A stretch of DNA of 62,916 nt, filler included, from Craspedostauros australis (GCA_030167865.1; 12 parts of 12 records of this genome joined end to end with filler, not necessarily neighbours in it); one strand, 5' to 3'; counted from the first letter of the whole stretch, positions 1-57,724 are shown. The notes: a model not told the origin generated them from the sequence alone. Numbers and translations: made by a program.

Positions 1-582
1 CGCATCCACGATGGCCGAGAGATTGCCACCTGCATTGAATTGGTCGTACTTTCCCTTTCCATAGTGACATGGATGCGAGTCAGCCCGTCGCTTGTTTGAT
101 GGCATGGGTGATTCATTCTGTACAGAGTGAGCAATTGCGGATGTGTCAGTTTGAGACGGCGGAGATGATGGGGGCGGCGATGGTGACTTGGTTGCGCCAT
201 CATTCAATCTATGCAAGAAACGGTCCACCAATGCTGATTTGCCCGTCCCTGAATAGCCGTGGATGAGAACGACCTGTGCATCCTTGTTGCTATCGGCACT
301 ACTGCTGTCATCACGTGTGGGCTTCGTCAGTGGTTTGCGACATATGCGGCCGTAGATCGAATTCAATCGTTCCAGCTCATCTTCGCGTCCCACGAAGGTG
401 TTGAGCCGCAGTTGATCCCACTGTTCGTCATCGTCATCGTTGCCATCGTCGTCGTCACCGAAGGTGTGGTTGTCGTCGTCGTAGATACTGTGCTTGGGAT
501 CATCGGTAGTGTCTGTGCCTGGATGTGATGAAGCGTACGTTTGATCATCCGTCTGCTCACAGGGAGTTGTTTTGTCTGCCAT
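1..582 (-). CDS. 5' part of a COG3899/AAA_16 STAND-like P-loop ATPase (copy 1), running off the left window edge
   Basis: Manual translation from ATG 582 is open to base 1: MADKTT...QWDQLRLNTFVGREDELERLNSIYGRICRKP...VVLIHGYSGTGKSALV...CHYGKGKYDQFNAGGNLSAIVDA. It is clearly paralogous to exon 1 of the two intact genes. It is absent from the ORF track because no stop lies inside the window. Confidence 0.88.
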   Translation of the reverse strand, partial: MADKTTPCEQTDDQTYASSHPGTDTTDDPKHSIYDDDNHTFGDDDDGNDDDDEQWDQLRLNTFVGREDELERLNSIYGRICRKPLTKPTRDDSSSADSNKDAQVVLIHGYSGTGKSALVDRFLHRLNDGATKSPSPPPSSPPSQTDTSAIAHSVQNESPMPSNKRRADSHPCHYGKGKYDQFNAGGNLSAIVDA

Positions 583-1081
583 GGTGCTTGATGCCTTGTC
601 GATCGATGGTTTCGAATGGTGCGAAGTATTGCGGGGTCTGATGTTGCGAGACCCGACGGATTATACCGACACTGTCTTGAAAGAGCGTGTTGGTATTGGC
701 ACGTGGATGTGTTTGTGTATTATGAATGAAGTCCAATGCTCTCTCTCTCTCTCTGTCTCTGTCTCTGAAGTGAGGACGCAGGCACGTTCAGCTCCAAGGA
801 TGAAGAGCCGGGGAATGCGATGTGAGTGCTGGTGCTCTCCTTCGTGACAACAGACTGTTGGCAGGGATGTTCGCAAGCACTATGTCGTTTCTGGTCACGG
901 CCTTCAAGGCATCACGATGGCGCCGCGCAAGTTTGGACACTGCTGTTCCAGCAACCCGAAATGGCTCCAGGTGGACAGCGAAGGAGGCACGAGAGACACT
1001 TGGAAACGGTAATGAATGTCGCAGTGTTCTTCGTTGGTGCTTTGGATGGAGAATGGGTCATGGATGGACACAAGCGAAGTT

Positions 1082-1590
1082 CTGGGACACCCAATAATTT
1101 GTCCAGAATTCGTGCGTTGACATCTTTTCTAGTCTTGCGGGACTAGAAAAGGACAGAACCACGTTATCGATCAAGTTTGTCATTTTTCTTCGAAGTTGAC
1201 TATTTGAGAGAAATTCAGCAATGTTGAGCATTGACTTAACGGATTCTATCGGACAACGTTGAACTTGAGGACAAATACGGACATTATCTGACAAATCCGG
1301 ACAGATCTGGACATTTACGACTACATGGAATCGATATTTTATCCAGTTAGTGTGGAGGCTTGTCCGGATTTGTCAGGAACTGTCCGGATTTGTCCTCATA
1401 TTCAACTATGTCCGACTATTGATTGTCCGTTAATGGAAACTACGCAGTTCAAGGAATTTCTCGCTTTGTTGTCGTGTTTGAACATTCAAAGCACAATTCG
1501 ATCATCGCACTGATTTTCTCTTGATGTAGTCCCGCAAGACTCCAGAACATGTAATTTTCAGAATTCTAAACACATTATTGGTTGTCCCTG
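1082..1590. mobile_element. Foldback/MITE-like non-autonomous DNA transposon (~510 bp)
   Basis: The left end (ctgggacacccaataatttgtccagaattc...agtcttgcgggacta) matches the reverse complement of the right end (cagggacaaccaataatgtgtttagaattc...agtcttgcgggacta). Inner gacaaatccggaca / tgtccggatttgtc repeats are also inverted. No coding capacity and no clear TSD. Confidence 0.75.
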
Positions 1591-2074
1591 GCCATCCAAG
1601 CGATGTTGCCCAGCCATGTCAATGTCGTCGGCTTTCGAAAACCGTATCCTCAGGGACACGCAACGAGATGTCGGATACGAACAAGAATATCGAACCGTTA
1701 AGTTCGAAAGACACAACTATTTCTCATTGATAATATTGTGGTCGGGTCGACCCGATTGATAAATTGGTGGGTCGATCTGCGATGGTGGAGAATGTCATGG
1801 AGATTCTGTGTAGCCACAAACAAATCACCAAAGGGAGTGATCGATGGCTACGAAGAGGCAAAACGATGACTTGCTAGTATTCTGATACTACCTAATCAAG
1901 TTGCCTCCAGTATGCCAACTGCAAAGTTCACGTCTTTCGACTTTGCCGAGTGTATCGAAGGCGTGTGAGTGCCTAATCTCTATCTGTGATAGACTAGCAC
2001 AACTGTACACATATTGTTCCAGAGGAACTGGAGTTTCCCAATGATGATGGTCTGCTTCTGATGAACTCGTACAG

Positions 2075-5000
2075 TTACAGTGCATCAAAGTTCACCTCTG
2101 CCATCATCTTGTGTGCCGTGGTCACGCACATCCGTGTATCTGCTGTGTGCTTCGTCATTCTCCGGTTCCGCCGTCGGCCGTTGATTTCCCCTCCGTCGCT
2201 TCCATCAATGCAGCCCTCCACCATGCTTCGATGGAGGAGGTCCGGATACTTCTTCAAGAGCTGTTCCACCTTCGCCTTTGCTCCCCACTCGTTGTACAAT
2301 GAGATGGCATTCCTCAGATACAGTCGTGGCCAGTACCACTCCGTATCGTCTTCGACAATGGTCGTGTTTTCGTACATCGATGTGCTGGGCTCTCCGAACA
2401 TGAAATCACGACTGCTTCTGCGGTTGCCATTCGCAGTTGTACCAGACAGTTGTGAGGACGAACTCTTGAGGAGAAAGTACTCGGCGGCAAGCTCATTCGC
2501 CAGCGCTGTCTCGTGGATATGGCCAGAGCGAGCAGAGATCGAGATAGCCTTGTCGTAAGCCGCCTTCACAGTCTCCTCCTGTTGCTTTCCAGATGCCGCC
2601 ATTGCATCTGCTTGCATAATCATGTACCGATGGAGAGAGTTCCCGCCCTTCGTTTCGATGAAAGCCTTCAAGGTTCTCATTCGTTGCTTCGAGCGGCGAT
2701 AATACTTTCGTCGCTTCCGGTTGTTGTTTGTGATTCGTTGAGCCAATCTCGACATGGTGAGACCAGAATGAAACGCCTCGAGAGCCAGAGCCACCATCGA
2801 GTGTTCTATTTTGCAAAGACGTTCAAGTGGGGCAACATACTTCTTGGCAACCTCCAGGTCACCGAAGAATGTTGCCAGCTGTATGGAACCCCAACAAGAA
2901 TACAGCGCACTGGCCCATTCTGAAGGATTGGGATCCTTCACCGACATTGAGTCGGCCAGATGACGCCACTTGTCTTCTGCGAAGGCTGCCGTGGGGTCGT
3001 TTTTGCCAAGCAAGACCACCCACGTTGCGAATGCGGACACAAAGATCTCTTCTATAGCCTTGAGGCCATAATGCCGTAGTTGAGCCAGGTATGACTTCCC
3101 CACTCGATGCAGCGAGACGAGAGGTAAGCCAGCTACGAATGCAAAGAGCAAACTCCCTCCCCAGCATCTGTATGCAGACTCCAAGTCACCCGTTTCCATT
3201 GCATCGTGATGGCCTCGACGCAGATCGGCCAAGCACACGTGGACAGGCTTGGACCATGCGTCGATGTAAATTCCCATCACGGCGATGTAACTGCCAAAGA
3301 TGTGCTTGGAGTCAGTTGCATCGAGGATACGTCTCGATAACGCACACAGCCGTTTGCCGAGGTCCACCTCCTTGAAGGTATTCAGGAGAATCACCCCAGC
3401 AGCGCAGAAGGAATACGCACCTTCCGCGCACAAGCCGTGCTTCAGGATGAGTCTGACTTGTCGGAACAAAATGAAGATCAATGTTCCAATCTGGCTCGAG
3501 CAATGGGCCGAGTGAGTGGCACGATGCAATATCTCCATTGTCAATTTGATCTTGGGGTCCTTCATGGCGGGGAGCTTCATTATGTCTTCGTCAGTGTGTT
3601 TGGAGAAGTAGGTGTTGATCTTGCGTTTGTCTCTGAGAGCCAAGAAGATATGATTTCTCACAGGAAAAGTCTTTAGAAGCTTGAGCGATTCGAGTTGGAG
3701 ATCCAACGATTCTTTGAAACGTTCCAAGCGATTAAGTGCCTTCACCAACGACATGTTCACCAAGATCTTGTCCTCTACGTACTGATCGGACCTCTCGACG
3801 ATGGTCTGACATAGCATCGACCCCGTCTCGTAGTTACCGAGGGTCAGTTCGATCTCGGAGAGGCTGTGATACACATCCCTGCACAGACCGTACTGCGTCT
3901 CCCAAGGATCAGCGATCTTGATCTCTAGATTCGTCAGGGCTTGGTTCAGGTACTTCGCTGCCGGAACGAAGGCGGAAACGCCAACTGCAAGCTGTCCTGC
4001 CTTGAGGTTGAGATTGATGAGATCGATGGTTGGAATGATGTGATCGGATACCGTGAGCGACGACACGTTCTCGAGATGGTCCGCAGCCATGAACCACATC
4101 CAGTCTTCGCCCAGCATGGGATCAGACCCGATCTCCATGAGATACTTGCCCACCCGAAACTTCATTTGGTCAAGCTCGTCACCTGGAGGAGACAGCGAGA
4201 AGGCCGCCTGCTGGATTCGATCGTGGGCGAAGCGGAACGTCGCGCCTGAGTCGACAGCGGCTTCAGCTGGACCTGCGTCCGGATTGGCACTGGTCCTCTC
4301 GAGCAGTTCCTCTTTCACTGCCATATCCAGTGCCTCACCTACGCTCATCTCGGTCACCGACAGGGTGCGCATTGCGTTTTCACCATCTGTCTGATGAATC
4401 TGATGCTGTTCCATCTCCCAGTCCATCAGCGTCTCCAACAACGACTGACGGAACGTCGATCGTAGGAATGAAGCCATCTGCAAGCACTTTTGCAGGTCGT
4501 CCGGAAGCGAATGCAGCTTGGATGTGATCAGGTCGACGACATTCGCTGATAGGTCGATCTCATCGGCTGCTCGCTGCTCATCCCATTCCCATTGCAGCGT
4601 GTGGATGTTTCGAGTCAGAGCCTTGCGACGGCGCAGTCCCTCCAACGCTTGCATGGTGTATAGTACGTTGCCTTTGGTCTTGTCATGGAGCAACTTGGCC
4701 AGAGGAGCTGCTTCGGTAGTATCTAACCGAAGTGACGATGCGAGGAACTCCGCGGTTTGGGTGATCGTGAGATCATTGAGAGGAATGTCGTGGATGGTCT
4801 TTCCGTTGGTTTCCCACTGTGAGACGGCAGTGGTGAGTTGGTGTTGAGGATCGTTGTGCACCTCGTTGGATCGGTATGATCCGATGATGAGGAGGTTGCG
4901 GATGGAAGGATCGATCAAGATCTCAGTGATGAGCTTGAGTGATCGTTCATCAACCCATTGGAGATCTGTTTGCGTGGAATACGGGTGTGCGAATGCGGAA

Positions 5001-6383
5001 AAGGAAAGGTCGGAGTGTGGTACAAGGGTGATTCCGTGAGATGATGTCGCGCGGTGTAACACGACGTGTCAGCCTACTCAACGTATAGAAGAAAATGCAT
5101 GGGCGGTCCAAGAACATATCCGAGTACATAACAATACGCGTGCACAAAACACGGTGCCGTTGGCTTCACTCACCGTCCAAATAGAGAACAAGCGGATGAT
5201 CGTCGGTGCAGATGGCTTTGAGGATCACCTTGAAACCGTGCACGATCCGAGGCCATTCTTTTTCTCTCGAACCCACAACTCCGCGTTGGTCCGCGTCGAA
5301 AAGTGAGATCGTCGTCATCGACTTCGCGCTGACCGAATACTCATCAATCGACGGTGCCGCATGCTCCATTCCTTCCGAGCCGGCATTGTACTTGTTGCGG
5401 TTCATCATCCGAGATGGCTTGGAAAAGATCTTCATGCGTTCTTGCCTGCTGGCCATATCTTCTTCGCCAATATCGATCTGCCGACAGCTCATAATATCCC
5501 ACTCCAACATGTTGGAGAGGCCAGGGATGATTTTGCACATGCGGCTGCGCAGGGCCTTGTTCAGTTTCTTGCACAGGGTGTCCCGGATTCGTTTGCTTTC
5601 CAGAATGTCTTCTGCTTCTTTGAGATGGTCGAAGAGGCTGGACAAGGCATCGACGATGGCGGACAAGTTGCCCGCATTCTTGAATTGGTCGTACTTCCCC
5701 TTGCCGACATGGCACGGGTGCAAATCAGCCTGTCTCTTCTTCTGTTCTACAACACCATCTTCGTTTGATGTTGATGGCGTGGTGTTCGGAGGTGACATCG
5801 TGACACCCAAGTCCCCCAAGAAGCGATTCACCAAGGCTGACTTTCCTGTCCCCGAATAGCCATGGATGAGAACAACCTGCGGTTCTTTGTTGCCTTTGCC
5901 TGCGCCTTTTGCCATGCCATTTGCGAGTCGGTTGCTGTCGTCGGATGTCTTGGACGGTTTGCGGCAGATGCGTGCGTAGATCGATTTCAAGCGCTCCAGT
6001 TCATCTTCGCGTCCGATGAAGTGATCGAATCGCAGCTGATCCCACTGATCGCTGCTTGCGCCTTGGCCATCTGCGTCATCAGGATTCTCGGCGCAATCGG
6101 CGCCGTTGAGTTCATCGTCCGAATCTGAGTGCTCGTACTCTTCATCGTCGTCGATGCTGTAGATGTCGAGTTTGGATTCGAACGTCGCGCTGGCTCTGTC
6201 TTTGGCTGAACCGCCTGTGCAATCGCTGATGGCCGTTCCGTCATGAAGAGATCGATTGGTGGCATTCGAAGAGGCGCCTTGGGCATTGGCATCGCCACCG
6301 CAATGCAGATGCGACACCGAAGACGGCTTCTCGGAATCGAAGGATGGAACGTGGATGACCTTGGAAGCGCGGCGGTTCACCAT
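2075..6383 (-). CDS. COG3899/AAA_16 STAND-like ATPase with winged-helix and TPR-like helical C-terminus (copy 2); join(6383..5174,4965..2075), 1366 aa
   Basis: Motifs: FIGREDEL, Walker A GYSGTGKS, GKYDQ, IIGSYRSNEV, KTKGNVLY, FRFAHDRIQQAAFSL, AYDKAI...ALANELAAEY and WGAKAKV. A GTGAGT...CAG intron (5173..4966) restores Walker B LVLYLDDLQW in frame. Confidence 0.9.
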
Positions 6384-8213
6384 GGCTGCTTGGTGTATGG
6401 TATGGTATTGTACGGTATCGTATGGTATAGTGCTTGGCGGTTACACGTTCGGTTAGTGTGCCACAACGATAGCTTGTTGCGGGGTGGATGTTGCGATTGT
6501 CTGAATGTGATCACAATTCGAATCTTTGATTTTGATGTTGTCTCTCTGCTCTCCCGGTCGATGGTTAACGCCAACATGCAATGAAAAGCGTCTGTCTGAG
6601 CGATTGAGTGTCGCGTTCGTGGAGTGCCCACAGCGATGCCGCAAGGGAGTGCCTGCAAGTTCGGACGCATCTTGCGCACCTCATACCAAAACGCCCACAC
6701 ATTCACGCTCACCATTGCGTGAAGAGCGATGATCGTTGGCTGGTCGGGGTTCGTTGACAATCGTCAAGGGAGTAATTCTTTGTTGATCGAAAATACGATA
6801 CCATAACTGAAGCCAACGCGAAGACAAGAATGTCCCAACTGGCAAACGAATCGATCCATCCACCCACGATGACAAAAGGGAAACAAGTGTGTCAAACGAT
6901 TGTATTCGCCCAAGGGCGAGAGTACGATCTACGAGTACAGACGGCTCCACGAACAGGACCTGCAATCTTGCACAGAAAAAGCGCGCGAACGAGAGGTTCC
7001 ACTTTGGTTTTCTCACACAGACACAAGGTAAGTTTCTCACATGCCACGTGGTCTTTCCACACGAACTGCAATGGAACTTGTGAGTTGCCAAACCAAGTCA
7101 TCCCGTTGCATGTTCGCTCGCTGGTATCCAGAATAACCACCGTGGAACATGACAGGTGGCAAACAAAGAACCGCCAAACGCGAAGGTCGCGAAGGATGGA
7201 ACCAGAAAGAACGACTGTGCACAAGCGGTATTGGTCTCGATGCGCGACACAACAAACATCATCAGCGCCAGCACTTCTTCCTGCTTCCGATTTATGGGAA
7301 GGACAAATGACAAGACACTGCAGCACGAAAGTGGTCACCCCTCCGCCACAACATGGCAAATAGCCATGGGGAAAGAAAACCCAAGCAAAACCAGCGCCAC
7401 AAAATGGAAAGTTGGACTTGGGCTATTGGCGTCCAGCCAACACCTCGCGAAGTGACATGGAACAACACACTGCCACAGGTTCATCACCACAAAGTTCAAA
7501 TAATCCGCTCCGCCAGTGCACCATCGGACGCAATGTGTACCGTCCATGTCAGTGAGCGTGACTATTCTTGTGGTGCAGAGGAGAGTAGACTTCAGCGAAC
7601 ATAGTCGTAGCTGCAGCGATCACAAATGCGGAGAGATGCGATGCGACACGTCCACAATTCTGCTGAGCTCGCAAAAAGTGCGATACTCCTCACAAATCAA
7701 ACCAACACCGATCGTTGGCTCGCATGACAGCACTTGGAATTTGCAATTGACCGCGGCCGCTTGAATCAAGACGCAAGACGGAGTGTTGACGTATTGTCTC
7801 GCCTCCAACATTCTAGACTAGTTCAACTCATGTTCTCATCAAGTAAGTTCTCACAGATCTCCACAGATCAGCATGGATCTTCCATGAAGTAATTTGTACA
7901 AGTCAAGCACACAATTGAAGTACTTGTGGAACGTATCGTATTACGTGCAACTAACTCCAACACAAACTTGACCACACTTTCGAAGTTCCAGAAATACAGT
8001 CATTCGGGACACTCTCACATTGGGCAACGATTCGCGAACAAACACGTTCGATAAAACCACAGATATGACGGAATTATCCACGTTCGAAACACCTGTACAA
8101 ATGGCGTCCTACATTTGTTGCATTGAAAGTAGATGCTCGAGTATGAACGTGTAGTTGTTCCAGCCAGTACTGTCATAAGAGCACTCTATTCGTCTCTATT
8201 ACTCTGCACGGAT

Positions 8214-11200
8214 TCACAACGCATCAAAGTTCACCTCCGCCATGATTTTGTGGGCTGTGGCAACGCACATCCGCGTATCCGCAGTGTGCTTCATCATGCT
8301 TCGTTTCCGCCGCCGTCTGGTGCCCTCTCCTCCGTCTCCATTGACGCCGTCCTCGACCATGCCTCTATCGAGCAAGGTTGGATATTTCTGCAGCAAATGT
8401 TCCACCTTTGCCTTTGCTCCCCACTCGTTGTACAGCGAGATGGCATTCCCCAGATACTGCCGCGGCCAGTAGGATTCTGTATCGTCATACAACATGCTTG
8501 TGCTTTTGAAAGCCATGCTGTTGGCATTTTCTTTCCCAATCTCCATGTTTGGGCTGTGATTGCTGTTGCCACGATCGCTTGACTCACCCTCGGTGTTCAC
8601 CAGCGGCTGCTTGTGCAACAAATACTCGGCGGCAAGCTCATTCGCCAGCGCTGTCTCGTGGATATGGCCAGAGCGGGCAGAGAACGAGATGGCCTTGTCG
8701 TATGCTGCCTTCACAGCCTCTTCCGATTCCTTTCCGGATGCCGCCATGGCATCTGCTTGCATGATCATGTATCGATGGAGAGAGGTTCCACCCTTGGTTT
8801 CGATGAACCCCTTCATGGTTTGTATATATTGCTTCGAGCGGCGATAATACTTCCGTCGCTTTCGGTTGTTGTTGGTTATTCGTTGAGCCAGCCTGGACAT
8901 GACGAGTCCAGAATGGAACGCCTTGAGAGATAGGACCATCATTGAGTGCTCTGCTTTGCAAACTTGCTCAAGTGGATCGACGCACTTCTTTCCCACCTCG
9001 AGGTCACCAAAGTATGCTGCCAGTTGTATACAACTCCAACAGGTGAACATCCCTTTGATCCATTCTGAAGGCTTGGTATCTTTCACCGATATCGAGTCCA
9101 CGGAACTCCTCCAGGTGTCTTGTATGCATGATGCGGCGGGGTCATTCTTGCTAGCTATGGTCATCCACATGCCGCAGGGAACCGTCAGGAACTCTTTCAG
9201 AGCATTCAGGCCGTAGTGCTCTACTTGCGCAAGGAATGATTTTACCGCCCGACACAGTGGGACGAGAGGCAATCCAGCCACGGATGCGATGAGCAAACTG
9301 CTTGCCCAGCATCGGTATGCCGGCTCCAAGTCGCCTGTTTCCATCGCAGCGTGATGGCCTCGACGAAGGTCGGCCAGGCACACATGAACAGGCTGGGACC
9401 AAGCATCGACGTAGCTCGCCGCCGAGGCAATGTAAGCACCAAAGATGTGCTTGGATTCAGTCGCATCAATGATCCGTCTTGCCAAGGCACAGAGCCGCTT
9501 GCCCAGATCGATCTTCTTGAGGATATTGATGAGAACGACTCCGGCGCAACAGAAGGCGTAGGCTCCTTCTGCACATAGACCATGCTTCAGTGTGAGTCTG
9601 ACTTGTCGGAACAGGATGAACATCAAGGTTCCAACCTGTTTCGAGCAGTGGGCTGAGAAAATCGTATGTCTCAGTAGCTCCATTGTCAGCTTCATCTTTG
9701 GGTCCGTCATGATGGAGAGATTGATTACCTCGTCGTCAGTGTGCTTGGAGAAGTAGGTATTGATCTTCTGGAGATCCCTGAGAGCCAGGAATAGATGATT
9801 CCTCACAGGGAAGGTCTTCAAAAGGTTGAGCGATTCGAGCTGCAGAACTACCGATTCTTTGTATCGTTCCAGACGATTCAGTGCCTTGACCAACGACAAA
9901 TTCACCAAGATCTTGTCCTCGATGAAGTGATCGGATCTTTCCACAATAGTTTGGCACAGCATCAATCCCTTGTCGTAGTTGCCGAGGGTCAGCTCGATCT
10001 CAGAGAGGCCGCGATAGACATCCCTGCACAATTCATATTGCGTCTCCCAAGGATCAGCGATCTTGATCTCTAGATTCGTCAAGGCTCGGTTCAGGTACTT
10101 TGCTGCCGGAACGAAAGCAGAAACACCAACTGCGAGCTGCCCAGCCTTGAGATTGAGCTTGGTGTAGTCAATGGTTGAAATGATGTGATCAGATACCGTG
10201 AGCGACGACACGTTCTCGAGGTGGTCCGCAGCCATGAACCACATCCAGTCTTCGCCCAACATGGGATCAGATGCGATCTCCATGAGATACTTGCCCACCC
10301 GAAATTTCATTCGGTCGAGCTCGTCGCCTGGGGGTGACAGCGAGAAGGCCGCCTGCTGGATTCGATCATGAACAAAACGGAACATCGCGCCTGAGTTGAC
10401 CAGGTGTTGGGTCGGACCTGCATCCGTCTCGATTCTCTCCAACAGCTCTTCCTTGACGGCCATATCCAGTGCCTCACCTACGCTCATCTCGGTCACCGAC
10501 AGGGTTTTCGTGGCACCCATGCCATCTACCAGATTCAACTGACGCTCTTCGATCTCCCAGTCCATCAACGTCTCCAACAACGACTGACGGAACGTCGATC
10601 GCAGGAATGAAGCCATCTGCAAGCACTTTTGCAGGTCCTCTGGCAGCGAATGGAGCTTCGCCGTGATCAGGTCGACCACGTTCGCTGATAGGTCGATCTC
10701 ATCGGCTGCTCGCTGCTCATCCCATTCCCACTGCGACGTGTGGATGTTGCGAGTCAAGACCTTGCGACGGCGGAGCCCCTCTAGCGCCTGCATGGTGTAT
10801 AGTACGTTGCCTTTGGTCTTGTCATGGAGCAACTTCGCAAGAGGGGTTGTTTTGGTGGTATCCAACCGAAGCGACGATGCGAGAAGCTCCACAGTTTGGG
10901 TGACCGTGAGATCATTGAGGGGAATGTCGTGGATGGTCTTTCCGTTGGTTTTCCACTGTGAGACCGCTGTGGTGAGTTGATGTTGAGGATCGTTGTGTAC
11001 CTCGTTGGATCGGTATGATCCGATAATGAGAAGGTTGCGGATGGAAGGATCGATCAAGATCTCAGTGATGAGCTTGAGAGATCGTTCATCAACCCATTGA
11101 AGGTCTATAGATACGAAAGATTGCGAGCGACAATGTGACACAATCGAGGTTTGAGCATGTGAGGTGGCGTTGTGCAGTGCGGCACAACGTGCCAACGTAC

Positions 11201-11588
11201 TCGTACATATAGAAGAAAAGGTATGGGCGGTCCAAGAACATATCCGAGTCTGCAGCAATACGCGTGTACAAACCACGGTGCCGTCGGTTTCACTCACCGT
11301 CCAAATAGAGCACGAGAGGATGATCGTCGGTGCAGATAGCCTTGAGAATGACCTTGAAACCGTGCACAAGTCGAGGCCATTCTTTTTCTCTTGAAGCTAC
11401 AACTCCGCGTTGGTCCGCATCGAAGAGTGGTATCGTCGTCATCGATTTTGCACCAACTGACTGTTGGTCTATCAACGGTGTCGCATGCTCCATTCCTTCC
11501 GAGCCGGCGTTGTACTTGTTGCGGTTCATCATCCGAGATGGTTGAGAAACTATCTTAATCCGCTCCTGTCTGCTGACCACGTCTTGTT

Positions 11589-11622
<34 letters not shown>

Positions 11623-12507
11623 GTGAAGATTGCTCTGGCAGTCGCCCTCCAACACATTGGAAAGACCAGGAATGATTCTGCACATGCGGTCACACTGATC
11701 ATCGTCCACCTTGCTGCGAATGCTGTGGCGTATGCGGTTGCTCTCCGCAACGTAATCAGGCTCGTCACCCTCCCCGAGATTCTCGAAGAAACTAGACAGA
11801 GCATCAACGATAGCTGACAAGTTGCCCGCGTTGTTGAACTGATCGTACTTTCCCTTGCCAACGTGGCATCGATGCCGATCGGCTTGTCTTTTGCCTTTTT
11901 CGGAAATCGTTTGCGCAGTGACATCATTTGCACCTGCAGTTGATGGCGCGGTGCTCGAAGGAGCCGATTTGACACCCAAACCCTCGAGGAATTGATCCAC
12001 TAGTGCGGATTTTCCTGTCCCAGAGTATCCGTGTATGAGAACAACCTGCGGTTCCTTGTTGCCTTTGCCTGCGCTAGTTGCGTCGGATGTCTTGGATGGT
12101 TTGCGGCAGATGCGTCCGTAGATCGAATTCAGTCGCTCCAACTCATCTTCACGCCCGATGAAGTGATCGAACCGTAGGCGATCCCACCGTCCGCTGCTTG
12201 TGCGTTGGCCATGCTGATCATCGGTGCCATCGGGATTCTCGTCGCGATCCATGGCGTTGTGTTCATCATCAGAATCTGATTGGCTGTGCGCATCATCATC
12301 GTCGATGCTGTAGATGTCGATCTTGGATTCGATCGTTGGGCTGGCTGTTTCCTCCGCAGTGTTGGAGGTGGAAACGGCGATGCCGCTCTCGTGAGCAGAA
12401 CGGTTGATGAATGCATCCACGCCACTCGCCCGTTGACCTTGCGAGAGCGAAGAAGAGCGCTTGAACGATGAGACGTCAAGGTGCTTTGAAGAGCGCTGGG
12501 TCACCAT
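8214..12507 (-). CDS. COG3899/AAA_16 STAND-like ATPase (copy 3); join(12507..11298,11104..8214), 1366 aa
   Basis: Same motifs and same intron position (GTGAGT...TAG, 11297..11105) giving LYLDDLQW. The start MVTQRSSK aligns with MVNRRASK of copy 2. A (GCT)n poly-Ala tract lies at about 11589-11620. Confidence 0.9.
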
Positions 12508-13254
12508 GATGACTTGGTGCTTTCTGGAGTGATTGTGATTCGAATGCAACGACGATCGCGTCCTCTCCTCCCATCATGAATGCCGATTCTATGGCTCCTC
12601 TTGTGATGCAGCCATCGGGAAGTGTGCCCTCTTGTGCACCGCCTATCGCTTTGGGCCCATCTCCGACCTGTGCATCCCCAATGGGTTTTTGTTGAGTCGC
12701 ACAATGGGCGGTCTTCACGAATAGATTTGGTCATGGGTGTGATGGGTGTGTCTTTGGCTCGAGGTCCATGCAGTTTCTGCCACAAAGGGCAGCTAGACAT
12801 TCCCCATGAGACACACTTGTCTACTTTATGCAACTTTTCAATTAATTAACGATCCATATTCTGTTCGTGAGGAGCAGTCTAGAGTACTGGCTTCGCAGAA
12901 CAGAGACACCTTGCGTTAAACAACAAGAGATGTCACAAGTGGCCCCTTCGCGATGACAGATTCGCTGTGTGACCTCGCAGTCCACAATTAGGATTTCTCG
13001 GCACTTCGCATCCGCTGTGCGGCGAGCATAATCGCCCTCACAAAGTCGCCCCAGCAGATGGAGATTCAAGCTTGCAACACTCACTGGTAGAATACATGAT
13101 TCCAAAGACCATCACACACCTCACTGCGTAATGTAATAGTACGCGCATACTGGACACAAGGAGATGTACACCAACGGCTACGCTGGGAATCGTCCACGTT
13201 GATGAGGGTGTTATCCTGGCTGCGGCTGCCTTCCGAAACGGCATCGGCCTCTCT

Positions 13255-13648
13255 GGCACCCACGGACGACAACATGCTGCGGCTCCTTGTTGCCCCTTGT
13301 TGCCCCTTCCTGCGCCGCCTGCGACATCGTGGCTGCTGCTGTCCGATACTGTATGGTCCGCGGCAAATGGTCGCGTGGATCGATTTCTATTGATCCAGTT
13401 CATCTTCGTGTCCGATGAAGTCATCGGCCTGTAGCCAATCTCACCGTCCCCTATTTATGTTGTGATTACCATTGACGACATCGGGATTATCGTGATGATC
13501 GACGGTGTCGCGTTCATCAGGATCGCCGTTGGTATCGCAATTGTTATCCTTCATGGTGTCAACACCGGACTTCGGTTTGCGCGTTGATCTGTCCGTCTTC
13601 CTCGAACGAACGATCAGTGACGCTGTTCTTGTTGGCAGAATGGCTCAT
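13255..13648 (-). pseudogene. Degenerate 5' relic of a fourth STAND-like ATPase copy
   Basis: Frameshifted, stop-containing translation gives an acidic N-terminus, then DDFIGHEDELDQ*KSIHATICR and RGNKEPQHVVVRG. These match FIGREDELERLKSIYARICR and KGNKEPQVVLIHG of the intact copies. Walker A is destroyed. Confidence 0.7.
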
Positions 13649-14585
13649 GTTTCGAAGAAGGCCTGATGCATACATCTCCAACAGATCTGGCAGAGCCAGC
13701 GAAAAATGAGAATAACAGAGCCATTATAGGATGTGTGGATCAATGCTCTGTACTCAAGTATAGCGATGATCATAGAGTAGAATGGATGAATACCTTAAGA
13801 GAGGTTGTGATGGGCAGAGTAAGCACGTACCTCTTACTCCTGTGTGATCAGTTGTTGCGTCATCCCGCGTGGTCTTTTTCTGCGGTTCGTTTCGCCTATC
13901 ATGGTGCACACTATAACGCTTTTTACTGGTTGCTCACACAGGATTCATGTGTTTCTCGTCCTTCGTCGACAGTTTGGGGAAACCACTTAATGAAGGTGCA
14001 GCTAATTCTATCTAACGTGCGACATGTGTCATGACGGCCTCAACGCAGGCGCGCCAAACCAAAAGAGACAAAACCCCACGCTCACATTTTCAACCAAAAC
14101 GACAGAACAACAAAGAACAACACCAATGTGACGTAGGTAATCTGCCACCAAATGATGAAGAGAGGAGCGACGCCAAGACGATCGACGAAGCAGAACTGTT
14201 CCGCACGTGGTCCACCACGCGTATCGACGAAGATGGAAGCTGTGGAACAGGGTAGCTCAGCGACCGATACAACGACATCATCACTTTCGTTGCCTACCTA
14301 CACAGTTGCCTTGCGGTGGTCTTGTTGCTGATCGCAGATGTTTGATTGTACAAATGTTATGGGATACTATTACCATACGAGCTACGAGTATGGGACTTGT
14401 GATAGTATTTGACAGCAACTTCTATCTTCCCGGGAGCGCTCACTCTCTCGGACGAACCAGCGATCCTGAGAGCACCGCACCACCACGGATGAAGGCATAC
14501 CATACCAGCATACTATTATACAAAACACTTCGATGGCTACANNNNNNNNNNNNNNNNNNNNNNNNNNNNNNNNNNNNNNNNNNNN

Positions 14586-14597
14586 TTAATTAATTAA
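14586..14597. other. Artificial scaffold linker TTAATTAATTAA in N runs (first of 11)
   Basis: The identical six-frame-stop 12-mer inside ~44 N on each side starts at 14586, 16715, 19171, 20965, 27071, 33759, 38003, 46010, 48611, 57669 and 59864. Confidence 0.97.
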
Positions 14598-16770
14598 NNN
14601 NNNNNNNNNNNNNNNNNNNNNNNNNNNNNNNNNNNNNNNNNAATCCACAACAAACGTATCCAAGACTCCTTCCTGCCACCACGATGCGATTGGCATGATG
14701 CGATCGTCAAACAGCACAACAACACAACAACACCACAAGAAGCAGACTTCGAGGCGCTCCTCGCTTTCGTTCTTGGCGCCTCACCATGTTAGCACTATGA
14801 TCGTACCCATGCACGCACAGAACGCCTCATCGTCNGTCGCCACTCACATGGACAAAGGTCAAGACAAGGAGGTGATTGGAGCAGTGTGNACACCATCCCG
14901 CTNCCATCGCCGAGTTGATCATCATGATTGTAGTACGACCACCAAGCCACAACACCGCCATGTTCGTCATCACATCATGATCCATCCATGCAAATCATGA
15001 GGATTCTTTCCACCGCTCGCATCTGCGTGGCAGTTGTGCTCCCCAGTTCTGTCATTGTCGATTCTACTGTTCGTGCCGATGATGGTGCTGATGATGGTGC
15101 TGGTGATGTCAAGCAGCAGGATCGGGAACCGCAACTGAACATGATGCATCCACAACGTCTGCGGCTGCTCCAACTGCGTATCCCCCGCACATGCGGCAAG
15201 GCACGGCATGTGGCGCCAATCGCAACAGCAGCANCAAGAGCAACAGCAACAACCCTCTTCGACGATTCCACATGGGTTCGACTGTGCAGAACACACCAGG
15301 GCACCATGTGACACGCCACCTCCTCATCTATCTCTATCCGAACAGCCACCTCATTCGTGAGTGAATCGGCGATCAGTCCCGTGTTCAACCAACCATCGAC
15401 TCTCGGCGATAGATTGGTGACCATGACGATGATGGATTCATCATCGAACGCCCCCACTCTGCACCTTCGGGCACCGCATCTTTCCGTGCAGATCTGAGAT
15501 CCCTCCCACTACCACTGCAACGCAGCGCAGCGCAACGCAATCCAAACAAAGACAGGAGATGAAGCTGCGCGAGCAATTCATCTCCAACAGCGCACACACT
15601 CATCATCTCCCAAGACAAGTGGTGATGCTTGATCCGCGAACAAGACATCGCGCGATGTCCGACCATTTCGCAGCCACAACAATTGGCTTTGGCAAGTTCT
15701 TGTTCTGATCTTTGATTTGGCGATATCTGTTTTGTGGCATCTCATGAAGCAACATTCCGCAGCAAGCAGACGAAGACTTGCCTCCTGGATCGTGGTGTGA
15801 CGACGCAGGTGATGAGAAGCACAGACTGGACCAGGCAATCTCAAGGAGGCGAAGGCAACTTTGTTCAACATAAATCATGGGCATCCGTACTCCAGTGCAA
15901 TCGATACAGCATTGGCCGTTCTTGTCTTCCATCAATCACAACGCTGGTTTGTTGATCATGAAGGCACTGTGGCCATTCGACGCTGCTACGCTATTTGCGG
16001 CGATGATCGCTGCGAGTGCAGTCCCAACAGCAAGTGCCATGGGGAATACAACGGTGAGTCACCCGGATCATCGCACTCATTGCCCTCTGGTGGCCTTCAC
16101 TGACGTCTTCCATGTTGGGTTCTTCGCCCGCTGAATCCGTACCATACGTCCATTCGTTCGTATGCATGCATGCATTTATGTATGCATGTGTGTATGCATG
16201 TGTGTAGCATGTATGTATGCTCGCACTCAACCCAGACTCTTCCGCCAAATCCTCTCTCTCTCGCTCGCTCGCTGTGTTCACGCTGCTTGTACTTGCGATC
16301 ATCACAACAAATCGGATGAAACGAATTCGCTCAATCAACTTGAACTGGAACGACTGTGCCCATCACAACAACTATGACATCACGCTGCAGCATCCCACAC
16401 CGGCACCGCTTTGCGATGAATGGAGATTCGCANCCATTGACGGAGATCTCTTGAATCAAACCTCTCAATCTCTCAGATTCGATGTATTCATTGTTGAAGA
16501 CGTTCAAATTAACTCCATCAAAGTGTTTCTGGCTCCTGGCTGTTCCAACATGCCATACAAGAATACAAGATCTTCTTCCATCCCCACATCTGGCAGGTGG
16601 ACAGCGGGAATTGGACTCAGATCGCCTCTGGCAACAACGGAGAAGTCGACTCTGATGGTTTCACGGCCTCNNNNNNNNNNNNNNNNNNNNNNNNNNNNNN
16701 NNNNNNNNNNNNNNTTAATTAATTAANNNNNNNNNNNNNNNNNNNNNNNNNNNNNNNNNNNNNNNNNNNN

Positions 16771-18666
16771 TTCGAGCGGTGTCGTTGGTGAGCGCTGATC
16801 GCCACCATTGGAGGTCTTGTGTGACTGCATGGGTGAGAGCTGTGTAGCTGAAGTATGGTAGATCAGGTTGGTCCCAATCGTCAGGATGGACGAGTGCGTA
16901 GAGAGCCCGCAGGTAGTTGCGACCGAGGTATGATGGTGTGGCCTCGGCTACGCTCTCCAACATGCCNNNNNNNNNNNNNNNNNNNNNNNNNNNNNNNCTT
17001 GTGGGTGTGGCTTCGATGTAGTCCAGCACCGCGATGATCTTGTCTCGTTTCAGCGGAGGAATGCGTAGGCGTGGTGTGCTCATGGTGTCGAAAATCAGTC
17101 CAGTGTACTTGACGACCTGGTTGGGTGGCGTGAGCTTGCCCGGGTGACAGAGTAGGCCACAGTCCACCGACAGGTCAAGGAAGGCCGACAACGCCGCTGC
17201 GGTCTTGCGGCGTGTGGGTCCATGGATGATGAAGTCATCGCAGTGGGCCCACACGAGAGCGGCGGGCAATCCGTCGGATCCGATGGACACAAGTCCCTGT
17301 CCTCTGGTATGGTCATAGTCCAGGCCTTGGTCGAATGCGGTCCACCACNNNNNNNNNNNNNNNNNNNNNNNNNNNNNNNNNNNNNNNNNNNNNNNNNNNN
17401 NNNNNNNNNNNNNNNNNNNNNNNNNNNNNGTATATCGGAGAATGCTCGCGTAGTCGTCGGAGGAAAGCAGTTCCTAGCCTGCATGCGATAGCCGGTGATT
17501 GGCTAGATCCCATTGGCAGCCCAGCATACTGGTACATTTTTCCCGAAATCGGATGTTGGATGCCGAGAAATCGCCTTTCGTCAGGACGCGTTCGAAATTG
17601 GTAAAAATACTTCGAAGCATCCACCACCGCCGACCATCCACCGTGATACATTTGTTTCAAAATGTCGCGGCTTTTTGGAAAAATGGTCGGATCGGCCCCA
17701 ATGAACTCGTTGGNNNNNNNNNNNNNNNNNNNNNNNNNNNNNNNNNNNNNNNNNNNNNNNNNNNNNNNNNNNNNNNNNNNNNNNNNNNNNNNNNNNNNNN
17801 NNNNNNNNNNNNNNTCTTGCGGCTCGACGACGCCGAGGCTGAGTAGCTCGTCGACGAAGTCCGCTGCCACCTGTTGTTGTTCAGCGGTCATGTCGGTGTT
17901 GTCATGGTGTCCTGATTCCGGGGTGCCCAGGAAATTCATCGGACTCCCTTCTCGCAGATGGTCCCAGTGTTGCTGGGGGAACTCCCACCAGAGCACTCGT
18001 AGCTGTTTGGGGTCAGGGTGTGTATCAGTGTAGTTGGTGCGGTGAACGCGTAGATCGTCGAGTCCGTCCTCGAGTAGCGAAGCGGNNNNNNNNNNNNNNN
18101 NNNNNNNNNNNNNNNNNNNNNNNNNNNNNNNNNNNAATGAACTCGTTGGTGCGGTTTTCTCGCATGTTGGCGATGATGCGCCATTGATCGGGCTGCATGG
18201 GTTTCGGTAGAGCAAAGAGAGGAGCATTGACGACCACCGGATGGAGTGGGTCTTGCGGCTCGACGACGCCGAGGCTGAGTAGCTCGTCGACGAAGTCCGC
18301 TGCCACCTGTTGTTGTTCAGCGGTCATGTCGGTGTTGTCATGGTGTCCTGATTCCGGGGTGCCCAGGAAATTCATCGGACTCCCTTCTCGCAGATGGTCC
18401 CAGTGTTGCTGGGGGAACTCCCACCAGAGCACTCGTAGCTGTTTGGGGTCAGGGTGTGTATCAGTGTAGTTGGTGCGGTGAACGCGTAGATCGTCGAGTC
18501 CGTCCTCGAGTAGCGAAGCGGATCGCTTTCCGTACCGCGCACAAGCCTGCCGCAGGTTGCCCACACGGCGCTGATGCCAATCGCCGCCGGGAGAGAGGTC
18601 GGGTGGGGACCATTGATATTGAGAGTCGCCGTTGTTGCCCTCAGGCATGATTTGATGGGTCTGTCT

Positions 18667-19125: not shown

Positions 19126-19226
19126 CNNNNNNNNNNNNNNNNNNNNNNNNNNNNNNNNNNNNNNNNNNNNTTAATTAATTAANNNNNNNNNNNNNNNNNN
19201 NNNNNNNNNNNNNNNNNNNNNNNNNN

Positions 19227-20585: not shown

Positions 20586-21654
20586 GATGACCGGTAACAT
20601 TTTGTCACATTTATTCGCCCTCTGCGAAGTTCGACTTGGAATGTTCGCATCGAACGGTCGCAAAGTTTTTCCATCTCGCCGTCGAATCGTGGAACACGTG
20701 TTCATTTTTGTCATTCTGTCTGCGTTGTTCGGATCGAAACAGTGTTTTCCCTGCGTCGCCTTTGACGCGTCGGCCCGACATGTTGGTTGGTTTGTAAGTA
20801 CACTGCAGTTTTGAACGGTTTGGTCCCTGAGGCACAACGAACTTGGGGTGTTGTTGTGAGCATTGCAGATCTGAATAGGCACAATAACGATGAACGGTTC
20901 AAGCTGAAACATTCGGGCATNNNNNNNNNNNNNNNNNNNNNNNNNNNNNNNNNNNNNNNNNNNNTTAATTAATTAANNNNNNNNNNNNNNNNNNNNNNNN
21001 NNNNNNNNNNNNNNNNNNNNGACTGGACCACCACTCGTGCATGAGCGGTTATTCCTCCCCCATGCAATATATTGAGCCAACCCACACAAAGATGAGCGTT
21101 GGAAAAGTAGCTGAAGCGCTTGGAGCGGTTGTGCACGGTGGCAGCTTTGTTTCGCGACGTTGAGTGCGTCGTGAGATTGTGTCGTCTGCCCGTGAGTACG
21201 TTTCATTCACGAATGTTTGGCCCAAAATCGAGTTCGAGAGGGTCTCGGATCCGTGAACCAACCAGAAATGTACCGAATCAGTCTCATTGACAAAAACACA
21301 CAAGAAGAAGAACAACGCAAAAAACGCACTCACAAAGGCCCTATTAGAGATAGCTTGGCCATTTTCATCACCTCATAACTTTATATCCAAGGCCCAGACT
21401 CACTGTATAGCACCTTTTCCTTATTAAAAATGTGTTGAAGTATACATAGTTAAATTATAGTCTCTATAGGAGCCCATTTTTTCAGAATCCTGCCGTGGTC
21501 GTACGGTCATTGGCTGACGTGGGTCTTATGGTAGTCCTCAAATTAAAAATCGGCACGAACGTACTATCGTATCCTGAATGGGGTCGTACAGTAGAGAGGT
21601 GTGTACTCGCATGGCATTGCCCTCCGACCGACCTCTTCTGCTACTCGTGCTTGA

Positions 21655-27026: not shown

Positions 27027-27126
27027 NNNNNNNNNNNNNNNNNNNNNNNNNNNNNNNNNNNNNNNNNNNNTTAATTAATTAANNNNNNNNNNNNNNNNNN
27101 NNNNNNNNNNNNNNNNNNNNNNNNNN

Positions 27127-37958: not shown

Positions 37959-38059
37959 NNNNNNNNNNNNNNNNNNNNNNNNNNNNNNNNNNNNNNNNNN
38001 NNTTAATTAATTAANNNNNNNNNNNNNNNNNNNNNNNNNNNNNNNNNNNNNNNNNNNNT

Positions 38060-57623: not shown

Positions 57624-57724
57624 CNNNNNNNNNNNNNNNNNNNNNNNNNNNNNNNNNNNNNNNNNNNNTTAATTAATTAANNNNNNNNNNNNNNNNNNNN
57701 NNNNNNNNNNNNNNNNNNNNNNNN

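Follow-up and report, generated by a model that had tools for sequence, protein, structure and literature searches.

The window (the whole stretch of DNA analysed here, 62,916 nt from the diatom Craspedostauros australis) carries an array of four minus-strand copies of one gene within positions 1–13,518: two are intact (copies A and B), one is cut by the window edge (copy 0) and one is a relic. Gene models and tblastn thus bear out the four same-strand paralogues (one partial, two intact, one relic) that an earlier note on this DNA had described, and the spliced proteins have the predicted length of 1,366 aa in both copies. When the remaining 49 kb of the window was searched by tblastn with copy A, no further paralogue turned up. 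Positions 1–14,541 contain no N, and from 14,542 onwards the window consists of short contigs chained by 11 linkers, each made up of 44 N, TTAATTAATTAA and a further 44 N; the contig that holds the array is therefore unplaced.

Table 1. Genes and features of the array (window coordinates)
Feature	Position	Strand	Description and basis
Copy 0	1..582	-	Third paralogue, 5′ part; ATG at 582..580; remainder beyond the left edge of the window
Copy A exon 1	5174..6383	-	Residues 1-403 plus one base; AAA_16 match
Copy A intron	4966..5173	-	208 nt, GT..AG, phase 1; read directly in the sequence
Copy A exon 2 and stop codon	2075..4965	-	Residues 404-1366; coding 4965..2078, stop 2077..2075
Copy B exon 1	11298..12507	-	Walker A at residues 160-167; AAA_16 match
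Copy B intron	11105..11297	-	193 nt, GT..AG; position and phase as in the copy A intron
Copy B exon 2 and stop codon	8214..11104	-	Coding 11104..8217, stop 8216..8214
Relic	13259..13518	-	260 nt of the N-terminal coding region, residues ~90-175; tblastn and DNA alignment
Copy A NOD	4181..6020	-	Residues ~122-665, intron included; NBD, helical domain and winged helix; motifs and model alignments
Copy A arm and TPR-like superhelical sensor	2249..4180	-	Exon-2 residues ~263-906; AlphaFold model
Copy A C-terminal helix	2099..2143	-	Exon-2 residues 942-956; candidate docking or output motif

Both intact genes have two exons, and their proteins are identical at 1,001 of 1,345 aligned columns (74%). 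A repeat search of the window placed the starts of copies A and B 6,124–6,169 nt apart. Each intron splits the Walker-B 'DD', falling in phase 1 within the codon of the second Asp, such that exon joining recreates YLDDLQWVD in copy A and splicing gives the family-wide DDLQW in both copies. The 3′ 139 nt of intron B are 80.6% identical to intron A. Copy 0, which is partial solely through the window edge, encodes an acidic N-terminus, VGREDELERL, a Walker A motif and GKGKYDQF in translation; tblastn aligns it to residues 62-246 of copy A at 44% identity, and it belongs to repeat families D1 and D6. The relic is spread over two frames at 43–45% identity, with a frameshift, in-frame TGA and TAG codons and a degenerate Walker A region; its DNA was aligned with copies A, B and 0, and the remainder of the gene is gone.

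The layout proposed earlier for each intact gene, an acidic N-terminus followed by a P-loop, a winged helix and a long helical region, agrees with amino acid composition, AAA_16 scores and AlphaFold models. The acidic low-complexity N-terminus extends for ~120–140 aa before the NOD; the first 140 aa of A and B have a pI of 4.4–5.0, with 19–21% D+E and 74–76% small or polar residues. The first exons of copies A and B match AAA_16 (PF13191) with 36.8 and 40.1 bits, respectively, against a Pfam gathering cut-off of 32.6 bits. In copy A, FIGREDEL starts at residue 122 and Walker A lies at residues 175-182 (nt 5838-5861); both copies have the same Walker A, GYSGTGKS, and the same Walker B, LVLYLDD, of the hhhhDD type. 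Exon 2 opens with the second Walker-B Asp and the sensor-1 Arg; the helical domain and winged helix come next, and the arm and TPR-like sensor lead on to the C-terminal tail. All of the family motifs are kept (G-x4-GKS, GK(Y/F)DQ, DDLQW, YR-x-NE, F-x-HDRIQQ and WGA-x-AKV), and exon-2 residues D1, W4, D6, R32, F246, H248 and D249 are invariant in a 40-row alignment. From the alignment and the NOD model of a homologue, the invariant F-x-H-D sits where the last helix of the winged helix begins; in STAND NTPases, a winged-helix His that contacts ADP is the counterpart of the His in the NB-ARC 'MHD' motif, and the His of F-x-H-D is a candidate for this role.

Two features of the P-loop domain depart from the family pattern. 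Walker A and Walker B are separated by 220–235 aa in A and B versus 141 in the homologue P0010, with ~80–95 extra, lineage-specific low-complexity residues between the two motifs, and the Pro of the family 'GNP' is replaced, giving GNV. ATPase competence of A and B is therefore an assumption. The proteins stop 63 aa past the last core motif, WGA-x-AKV, in a short basic tail that consists of a disordered basic linker and then one helix, the 10-residue blocks covering which have pLDDT values of 86 and 79 in the model. This helix is conserved between A and B, a comparable tail is carried by the Staurosira protein P0007, and we regard it as a candidate docking or output motif.

The domain searches revealed no effector. 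Pfam, NCBIfam and PADLOC gave no kinase, GAF, cyclase or other effector domain in A or B, with no Pkinase match in their exons by Pfam, and tblastn with 115 homologues found no kinase, GAF, GGDEF, HisKA or cyclase match in the window outside the known exons. Nine apparent tblastn matches outside the exons proved to be read-through into intron B. Both catalytic flanks are thus absent, as had been claimed, and the unseen kinase or cyclase exon that could have overturned that claim was looked for in the contig without success; the start and the end of the A and B proteins are conserved between them, and both match P0007, the transcriptome-derived sister protein. The N-terminal 150 aa matched no Atlas family (best score 0.82), and the PADLOC-DB defence models gave only two matches, both at the P-loop level (E 0.02–0.04). 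NACHT scored 13.5 bits (E 0.065), below its cut-off of 26.7, and there was no NB-ARC among the matches listed; the homologue P0008 scored 29.7 bits for NACHT. Neither an LRR, death-fold, TIR or nuclease domain nor a DNA-binding output domain was found in A or B, and the repeats are TPR-like.

Structure prediction supports a STAND-like fold for the A and B proteins, closest to MalT, in agreement with the fold proposed before. The AlphaFold model of copy A exon 2 (pLDDT 84, pTM 0.71) is of a winged helix followed by ~650 aa of paired-helix repeats, all-helical at high confidence, and Foldseek ranks TPR superhelices and the STAND-TPR protein 6mfv_A highest against it. Residues 1-351 of this model match MalT residues 129-413 with Z 10.5. 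For the repeats, exon-2 residues 350-778 align with MalT domain III (1hz4_A) at Z 12.3 and rmsd 4.4 over 350/366 residues, and the copy A sensor aligns with the APC subunit 4ui9_O at Z 14.2, although helical-repeat Z values of 10–14 are in the range where a match may mean a common arrangement only. The complete NOD fold comes from the model of P0010 (pLDDT 88.8), which is ~30% identical to the window proteins (28–30% for the exon-1 rows in alignment A2), and its best match is MalT 8bob_D (Z 16.8, rmsd 4.6, 345 residues aligned). This NOD model also matches 6mfv_A (Z 15.6, rmsd 4.9), resting NRC2 (Z 15.1, rmsd 4.9), NLRP9 (Z 13.0) and ADP-bound Apaf-1 (Z 12.3, 359 residues aligned), with Avs3 among its Foldseek matches. 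Cdc6/Orc1 reached a similar Z only at an rmsd of 10.7–11.7. Profile searches against PDB sequences gave nothing beyond generic P-loop and repeat matches.

A search for homologues of near-equal length gave 115 proteins at E ≤ 0.001, and a class of longer proteins comprised 612 homologues at E ≤ 1e-20; in the 120 listed of these 612, the named records are bacterial and each row carries GAF and/or a kinase. The bacterial homologues are 22–28% identical, with E down to 1e-63 and mostly ~95% coverage of exon 2 among the matches listed, and the module is, as had been stated, the core of bacterial Ser/Thr-kinase/COG3899/GAF/His-kinase or cyclase proteins. An identical protein is absent from the collections searched; the nearest homologue is P0007 (1,288 aa), at 40% identity and 100% coverage of exon 2. 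In a 67-row tree, a 23-row clade (SH-aLRT 99) unites A, B, all seven of the named diatom rows and unnamed core-only rows, and its sister is a group of three kinase-plus-AAA_16 rows (support 93). The best 150 representatives comprised 70 core-only proteins, 30 with an N-terminal extension only and 50 with a C-terminal extension. When 26 of the N-extended relatives were scanned, five gave protein-kinase matches, some of them partial or under the Pfam cut-off, one gave DUF6824 and 20 gave nothing known. We infer that the diatom clade descends from bacterial kinase/COG3899/GAF/output proteins with loss of the C-terminal outputs, and that the N-terminal kinase is also missing in the subclade of the window genes. 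Table 1 of a 2012 paper (PMC3491386) gives 42, 48, 11 and 2 COG3899 proteins for four diatom genomes; for the genomes in that table, this answers in part whether the family is low-copy (2–48 per genome).

Comparison of the full sequences of copies A and B gave a dS of 0.69 and a dN/dS of 0.24. Among 100-codon windows, dN/dS peaks at 0.60 in the N-terminal low-complexity region; outside that region the highest values (0.34–0.41) are in the C-terminal sensor, and the strongest constraint in the gene is in the NOD (0.05–0.10, residues 333-582). No similarity is left between the A and B spacers by sequence comparison. At the level of sequence, then, A and B are old duplicates under purifying selection and, because dN/dS is 0.24, both copies are to be taken as functional. 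Of the claim that the family is clustered and turning over, the clustering stands and one copy is dead, whereas turnover is not supported, given the dS, the dN/dS and the dissimilar spacers.

The A and B proteins are of a known kind, MalT-like STAND proteins with a TPR sensor, and belong to a clade that we found undescribed in the literature searched. Both the NOD and the sensor find their best structural match in MalT (PDB 8bob; domain III, 1hz4), which has the same order of NOD, arm and superhelical sensor, although sequence identity is only 10–14%. The MalT C-terminus is a LuxR-type DNA-binding domain, whereas A and B have no output domain, and their repeat region is ~130 aa longer than the stretch aligned to MalT domain III. 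Unlike MalT, they have an acidic N-terminal extension, low-complexity P-loop inserts, a eukaryotic host and introns. The bacterial CP1 kinase family of PMC12599244, 'trifunctional' Ser/Thr kinase/COG3899/GAF/His-kinase, GGDEF or cyclase proteins, consists of true homologues over the whole core, from YGRE-x-EL to WGA-x-AKV, with the core motifs in common; however, the N-terminal kinase and C-terminal GAF and output domains of these proteins are absent from A and B and from their contig, and the diatom sequences form a separate clade. The diatom COG3899/AAA_16 proteins of Staurosira, Nitzschia, Skeletonema, Cyclotella, Conticribra and Thalassiosira fall in one clade with A and B, and most are core-only like them, the N-terminus being short and acidic and the tail likewise short. 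P0007 has the P-loop inserts and C-terminal helix in common with A and B, whereas members from Thalassiosirales have an N-terminal extension of ~270–550 aa. With NLRs, Apaf-1/CED-4 and Avs, A and B have in common the closed NBD-HD-WHD and an overall plan in which a repeat sensor follows the NOD. They are nonetheless not NLRs in the strict sense, since NACHT and NB-ARC do not rise above cut-off, the repeats are TPR-like rather than LRR (or WD40) and there is no death-fold or TIR; CARD, PYD, CC and nuclease effectors are likewise lacking, and diversifying selection was not detected in the A versus B dN/dS.

The array as a whole probably represents tandem diatom nuclear genes for cytosolic, MalT-like STAND NTPases of bacterial derivation that lack an output domain and act as a sensor or scaffold. 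MalT and other STAND proteins serve as the analogy for a mechanism in which the closed, ADP-bound form would be auto-inhibited. Binding of a ligand to the TPR sensor would release the arm, after which ADP would be swapped for ATP and the NOD would oligomerise. Output would then arise by induced proximity to a partner, recruited either by the C-terminal helix or by the N-terminal motif, which is conserved, acidic and contains Tyr. The basis of the analogy is the MalT switch model as set out in PMC4381067, and the switch, oligomerisation and partner steps are all carried over from it. Read conservatively, the proteins are signal-transduction sensors or scaffolds, with an immune role possible.

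A more specific reading, which we consider unlikely, is that the genes encode intracellular immune or non-self receptors analogous to NLRs, clustered and subject to birth and death, with output via a partner or the short termini. The combination of a NOD with superhelical repeats suits such receptors, as do structural matches that include resting NRC2, NLRP9, Apaf-1 and Avs3, but MalT, the nearest structural match, regulates metabolism, and in the bacterial relatives the core is joined to signalling domains (kinase, GAF, His-kinase and cyclase). A tandem cluster containing a dead copy and the wide variation in COG3899 number among the four diatom genomes tabulated in PMC3491386 are also consistent with it, as are the variability among close relatives of the region N-terminal to the NOD and the location in the C-terminal sensor of the highest dN/dS outside the low-complexity N-terminus. 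Yet the overall dN/dS, the lack of any 100-codon window above 0.60, the dS and the dissimilar spacers are those of old conserved duplicates, and neither a PADLOC match nor a death-fold, TIR or nuclease domain accompanies them. The proposal of a role in immunity or non-self recognition found no positive evidence here, the argument for it being one of analogy in architecture.

It is distinctly improbable that the proteins are decayed or neofunctionalised remnants of a bacterial type without a nucleotide switch, for example a passive TPR scaffold or chaperone-like adaptor with a vestigial P-loop. Decay of this sort would be in keeping with the loss of both output domains, the long low-complexity inserts within the P-loop domain and the replaced 'GNP' Pro, and PMC12599244 puts ~40% of the linked CP1 kinases of the bacterial relatives as pseudokinases. 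However, Walker A, the Walker-B DD, the sensor-1 Arg and F-x-H-D are intact, and invariant or nearly so across 40 relatives, and constraint within the gene is strongest in the NOD. That the array is an artefact, whether an assembly duplication, stitched haplotigs or bacterial contamination among unplaced contigs, is scarcely credible. The array does lie in an unplaced contig of a linker-joined chain, but its contig has no N, and A and B, with 26% of aligned residues different, the dS given above and unrelated spacers, are neither haplotypes nor collapsed repeats; spliceosomal GT..AG introns interrupt both genes, and their sister is a diatom transcriptome protein.

Much of marine primary production is due to diatoms, which are subject to attack by viruses, bacteria and parasites, and no description of an intracellular receptor system for them was found in the literature searched. 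We likewise consider unlikely the idea that diatoms possess their own expanded STAND receptor family, of bacterial origin and stripped of its outputs, as an NLR-analogous surveillance directed at viruses, algicidal bacteria, parasites or non-self mating types. If this were true, tandem arrays would provide new TPR-sensor specificities, a partner encoded by a separate gene would receive the output via the acidic N-terminal motif or the C-terminal helix, and a major group of marine phytoplankton would have made another independent assembly of a NOD-plus-repeat immune receptor. If the proteins are not immune, they would still form a class of ligand-gated signalling proteins that is large and unexplored, and an example of bacterial multidomain sensors cut down to a regulatory core. 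A family hitherto merely counted as 'COG3899, predicted ATPase' can now be modelled as a STAND switch of the MalT type whose TPR sensor is large; it is multi-copy, partly tandem and related to bacterial kinase-COG3899 proteins, which makes it a concrete candidate to knock out, or to test under infection, in those model diatoms that have the family.

The array lies within a single unplaced contig (1..14,541), free of N and with its left end outside view, and may continue leftward beyond position 1. All long ORFs of relevance within 1-13,648 are on the minus strand. Copies A and B are intact two-exon paralogues, and each encodes 1,366 aa, as stated in the earlier note. Both introns start with GTGAGT, end with AG and interrupt, in phase 1, the codon for the second aspartate of Walker B; after splicing, the exons give '...LVLYLDDLQWVD...', the best-conserved motif of the family. 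The two proteins are identical in 1,001 of 1,345 aligned columns, while a third paralogue, copy 0, is far more diverged from A. Copy 0 had been called partial, and it is incomplete within the window, but the truncation is the cut of the window and not a natural one. In the relic, ∼750 nt upstream of the copy B start, the Walker A region is ruined, and the remainder of that gene is gone. No additional paralogue was found in the other 49 kb of the window. Between Walker A and Walker B, copies A and B carry low-complexity, Ser/Pro/Thr-rich inserts of ∼80-95 extra residues relative to the homologues P0010 and P0008, copy B also having 10 consecutive Ala; similar inserts occur in a homologous protein from a Staurosira transcriptome.

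Coordinates of the features of the array and of the other contigs in the window
Feature	Position	Strand	Remarks
Copy A	exon 1 6383..5174, intron 5173..4966, exon 2 4965..2078	minus	direct reading
Copy B	exon 1 12507..11298, intron 11297..11105, exon 2 11104..8217	minus	direct reading
Copy 0	starts at 582, continues past left window edge	minus	44% identical to A over residues 62-246
Relic	13259-13518	minus	260 nt; ~residues 90-175 in two frames; in-frame TGA and TAG
Low-complexity inserts	5175-5860, 11299-12030		between Walker A and Walker B
RVT_1 fragment	17313-18323	minus	weak, below cut-off
LRR protein	23130-24431	plus	PT-rich N-terminus
Copia-type reverse transcriptase ORF	29518-32826	plus	1,102 aa; RVT_2, E 3e-38
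DIP2-like AMP-binding enzyme	35162-38014	plus
Ankyrin-repeat and BTB protein	42099-44471	minus
Methyltransf_22 protein	53568-54800	plus
Artificial linkers	14542-14641, 16671-16770, 19127-19226, 20921-21020, 27027-27126, 33715-33814, 37959-38058, 45966-46065, 48567-48666, 57625-57724, 59820-59919

Comparison of A with B by the Nei-Gojobori method gave dS = 0.69, dN = 0.163 and dN/dS = 0.24. The ratio was 0.05-0.10 in the NOD (the P-loop nucleotide-binding domain, helical domain and winged helix; residues 333-582), 0.60 in the N-terminal low-complexity region and 0.34-0.41 in two stretches of the tail and the sensor, the TPR-like repeat region. No 100-codon window exceeded 0.60, site-wise positive selection being beyond the reach of two sequences. 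In the central part, which encodes the NOD, dS is only 0.36-0.43 (4000-5400 compared with 10100-11500, introns included), whereas on either side it is 0.8-1.3. The introns retain 80.6% identity over their 3' 139 nt, although no similarity is left in the spacers between the genes. The low central dS and the likeness of the introns despite unrelated spacers suggest gene conversion between the tandem copies over the gene centre. Judged by these substitution values, A and B appear to be old duplicates kept by selection, accompanied by one dead fragment; rapid birth and death does not fit the dS, the dN/dS and the dissimilar spacers. The same dS, the spacers without detectable similarity and the spliceosomal introns in both copies also argue against the array being an assembly artefact or contamination, which we consider very improbable and rejected.

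The only Pfam match in the proteins was AAA_16, at 36.8 bits (A) and 40.1 bits (B) with a cut-off of 32.6, and NCBIfam and PADLOC scans gave no match near cut-off. Searching the PDB with a single protein sequence returned two chance-level matches only, and with a 40-row profile only generic P-loop matches (Clp, ORC and, weakly, NLR) and PPR repeat matches. When 115 homologues, including those with kinase, GAF and output domains, were compared with the window by tblastn, none of the 346 HSPs lay beyond the known exons except nine, which run on into the intron of copy B where the frame is open by chance. Hidden exons encoding a kinase, GAF or output domain were therefore rejected. Starts and ends are conserved between A and B and fit those of the mRNA-derived Staurosira protein, which starts ∼135 aa before Walker A and has a similar short tail. 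The N-terminal 140 aa of A and B are acidic (pI 4.4-5.0, 19-21% D+E) and poor in hydrophobic residues, and an ESM Atlas search with the N-terminal 150 aa found no relatives, the best score of 0.82 being too low to be useful. Thus, with no matches outside the exons, conserved ends and an N-terminus lacking relatives, the description of these genes as effector-less is confirmed at the level of sequence.

The fold was examined with two models. The model of exon 2 of the window's own protein (40-row alignment; pLDDT 84, pTM 0.71) contains the remainder of the P-loop domain, the helical domain and a winged helix ending in an invariant F-x-HDRIQQ helix, followed by ∼650 aa of helices arranged in pairs, then a basic, disordered linker and a final confident helix. 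Its top Foldseek matches were TPR superhelices (TTC7B, Ski3, APC subunits), with the archaeal STAND-TPR protein 6mfv at rank 4. VIA-align against 48,161 chains gave Z = 14.2 for an APC subunit and Z = 13.0 for peptide-binding TPR regulators such as PlcR. Model residues 350-778 matched MalT domain III over 350 of 366 residues (Z = 12.3, rmsd 4.4), a weak match if taken alone, since helical repeats with Z below ∼13 may share only a common arrangement. Model residues 1-351 matched the MalT NOD-arm (8bob_D 129-413) over 267 residues (Z = 10.5, rmsd 6.0), and the colinear match of both exon-2 halves to one protein is a stronger point than the repeat match.

Because the P-loop domain of A and B is split by the intron, the NOD of P0010 was modelled instead (residues 1-483; pLDDT 88.8, pTM 0.80); its identity to the exon-1 rows of the window is 28-30% (alignment A2). 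MalT ranked first in VIA-align (Z = 16.8, rmsd 4.6, 345 residues aligned). Other STAND proteins in closed, resting forms followed with rmsd nearly as low, namely 6mfv (Z = 15.6, rmsd 4.9), NRC2 (Z = 15.1, rmsd 4.9), NLRP9 (Z = 13.0, rmsd 4.7) and ADP-bound Apaf-1 (Z = 12.3, rmsd 5.4, 359 residues). Cdc6/Orc1 reached Z = 15-16.5 only at rmsd 10.7-11.7, so that the modelled NOD appears to have its domains in common with these proteins and a different arrangement. By Foldseek, Cdc6/Orc1, Apaf-1, CED-4, MalT, NRC2, NRC3, Sr35 and Avs3 were all matched at E ∼1e-8 to 1e-6, MalT having the best TM score (0.47/0.53). The models point to the STAND-like fold that had been proposed, with MalT nearest.

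A near-length search with exon 2 (963 aa) scored 7,995 candidates, 115 of them at E<=0.001. The Staurosira protein (1,288 aa) was the best match, with 40% identity and 100% coverage, followed by AAA_16-only proteins and proteins of other named diatoms (Nitzschia, Conticribra, Thalassiosira, Skeletonema, Cyclotella and Bacillariaceae). Bacterial matches ranked below these and were 22-27% identical; those with near-full coverage span ∼95% of exon 2 and are flanked by a protein kinase on the N-terminal side and by GAF plus His-kinase, GGDEF or cyclase on the C-terminal side. Among longer proteins there were 612 matches at E<=1e-20; all 120 of the matches listed have this multi-domain layout, the named ones bacterial, with identity of at most 28%, and there is no sign among them of a long fused form in close relatives. 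The bacterial context described in the earlier note (kinase, COG3899, GAF, output) is therefore seen in the multi-domain bacterial matches of both searches.

A quick IQ-TREE phylogeny (LG+G4, SH-aLRT support only; provisional) was built from 67 rows, comprising A, B and the near-complete-core matches; a motif and length filter had removed 50 of the 115 matches. A and B pair as sisters (support 100), and Staurosira comes next (support 100). Together with every one of the seven named diatom rows and with further core-only rows, A and B fall in a diatom-type clade of 23 rows (support 99), 'clade' presuming a root among the bacterial rows of this unrooted tree. Its sister is a set of three kinase plus AAA_16 rows without C-terminal domains (support 93).

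A profile of the diatom-type clade run against 1.84 billion proteins found 150,158 representatives at E<=0.001, of which 29,091 reached E<=1e-30. Among the best 150 representatives, 70 were core-only, with fewer than 150 aa flanking the match at each end, 30 had an N-terminal extension only and 50 a C-terminal extension of at least 150 aa; core-only forms are thus common among the relatives. Scanning of 26 N-extended relatives gave protein-kinase matches in five (some partial or below the Pfam cut-off), DUF6824 in one and nothing known in 20. The region before the NOD varies in the diatom-type clade (P0072, P0074, P0113, P0106, P0246, P0250, P0256, P0281, P0358 and P0340). The first four, from Thalassiosirales, have N-terminal extensions of ∼270-550 aa with no Pfam match. 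A kinase remnant in these four was rejected, there being no Pfam kinase at E<=0.05, and in BLASTP P0113 aligned with P0054, which bears a kinase, from the ATPase onward only; a resemblance to a kinase C-lobe motif, judged by eye only, was dropped as a claim.

The family has been counted before: Table 1 of the genome paper on Thalassiosira oceanica (PMC3491386) puts COG3899 'Predicted ATPase' proteins at 42 in T. oceanica, 48 in T. pseudonana, 11 in P. tricornutum and 2 in F. cylindrus; no discussion of the family was found in the available parts of that paper. In T. pseudonana, three proteins pair COG3899 with a diatom-specific ∼80-aa domain (PMC3478156), which may be the 84-position DUF6824, a domain on which we found no paper. 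According to a review of bacterial pseudokinases, every CP1 pseudokinase is linked to a COG3899 domain, and ∼40% of CP1 kinases are pseudokinases (PMC12599244). In the main texts of open-access articles, we found no paper that treats the diatom clade of these genes as a STAND or NLR-like system.

By sequence the proteins are part of the AAA_16/COG3899 core family, and by modelled fold they belong with the MalT-type STAND NTPases, like which they may work by analogy. They differ from MalT in lacking a DNA-binding domain, and from the bacterial kinase/COG3899/GAF class in that both flanks are missing. Walker A and Walker B are intact in A and B, and the sensor-1 Arg and F-x-H-D are present; in other STANDs, mutating the His of this motif often makes the protein auto-active. 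That the proteins are vestigial ATPases seems to us quite unlikely. The models show a STAND-type closed NOD and a large TPR-like sensor, and there is no output domain. If the proteins behave like MalT and other STANDs (PMC4381067), the resting form would be ADP-bound and auto-inhibited, ligand binding in the sensor would release the arm, and ATP in place of ADP would allow the NOD to oligomerize. Since no effector is present in the same polypeptide, output would have to pass through a separate partner protein. Such a partner could be recruited by either of two short, conserved stretches, the C-terminal helix or an acidic motif that contains Tyr and precedes the NOD. This motif reads 'DIYSIDDD...' in both copies, and P0010, P0018 and P0021 have comparable acidic-aromatic runs.

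We regard this reading as a switch and scaffold as somewhat probable. The immune or non-self role put forward in the earlier note is an unlikely alternative reading of the same architecture, less so than a vestigial ATPase; compared with NLRs in the strict sense, the proteins score under the cut-off for NACHT, show no NB-ARC among the matches listed, and have neither an LRR nor a death-fold or TIR domain.

A single-protein scan of metagenome contigs for related loci, as a test of tandem arrangement, found none. An alignment scan kept 80 loci, 78 of them 22-30% identical; only L001 (177-3265) and L002 (341-3247) reached 30% or more across almost the full query, with tblastn identities of 33% and 29%. 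Both lie on 3.6-kb contigs without neighbours. Neither of these two closest metagenomic relatives has an intron at the Walker-B site, so that intron appears specific to the window's lineage. In L001 the frame shifts between 2249 and 2357, probably at a different intron.

The rest of the window, from 14,542, is a pseudo-molecule made up of short unplaced contigs, across whose linkers adjacency has no meaning. The eleven artificial linkers consist of 44 N, TTAATTAATTAA and 44 N, TTAATTAATTAA having stops in all six frames; numerous further N runs of 1-280 bases occur inside the contig pieces. Beyond the array, six of the 19 ORFs scanned matched a family at E<=0.001. The ankyrin-BTB, LRR, AMP-binding and Methyltransf_22 genes are each on separate small contigs, and the unplaced contigs are rich in retrotransposons.
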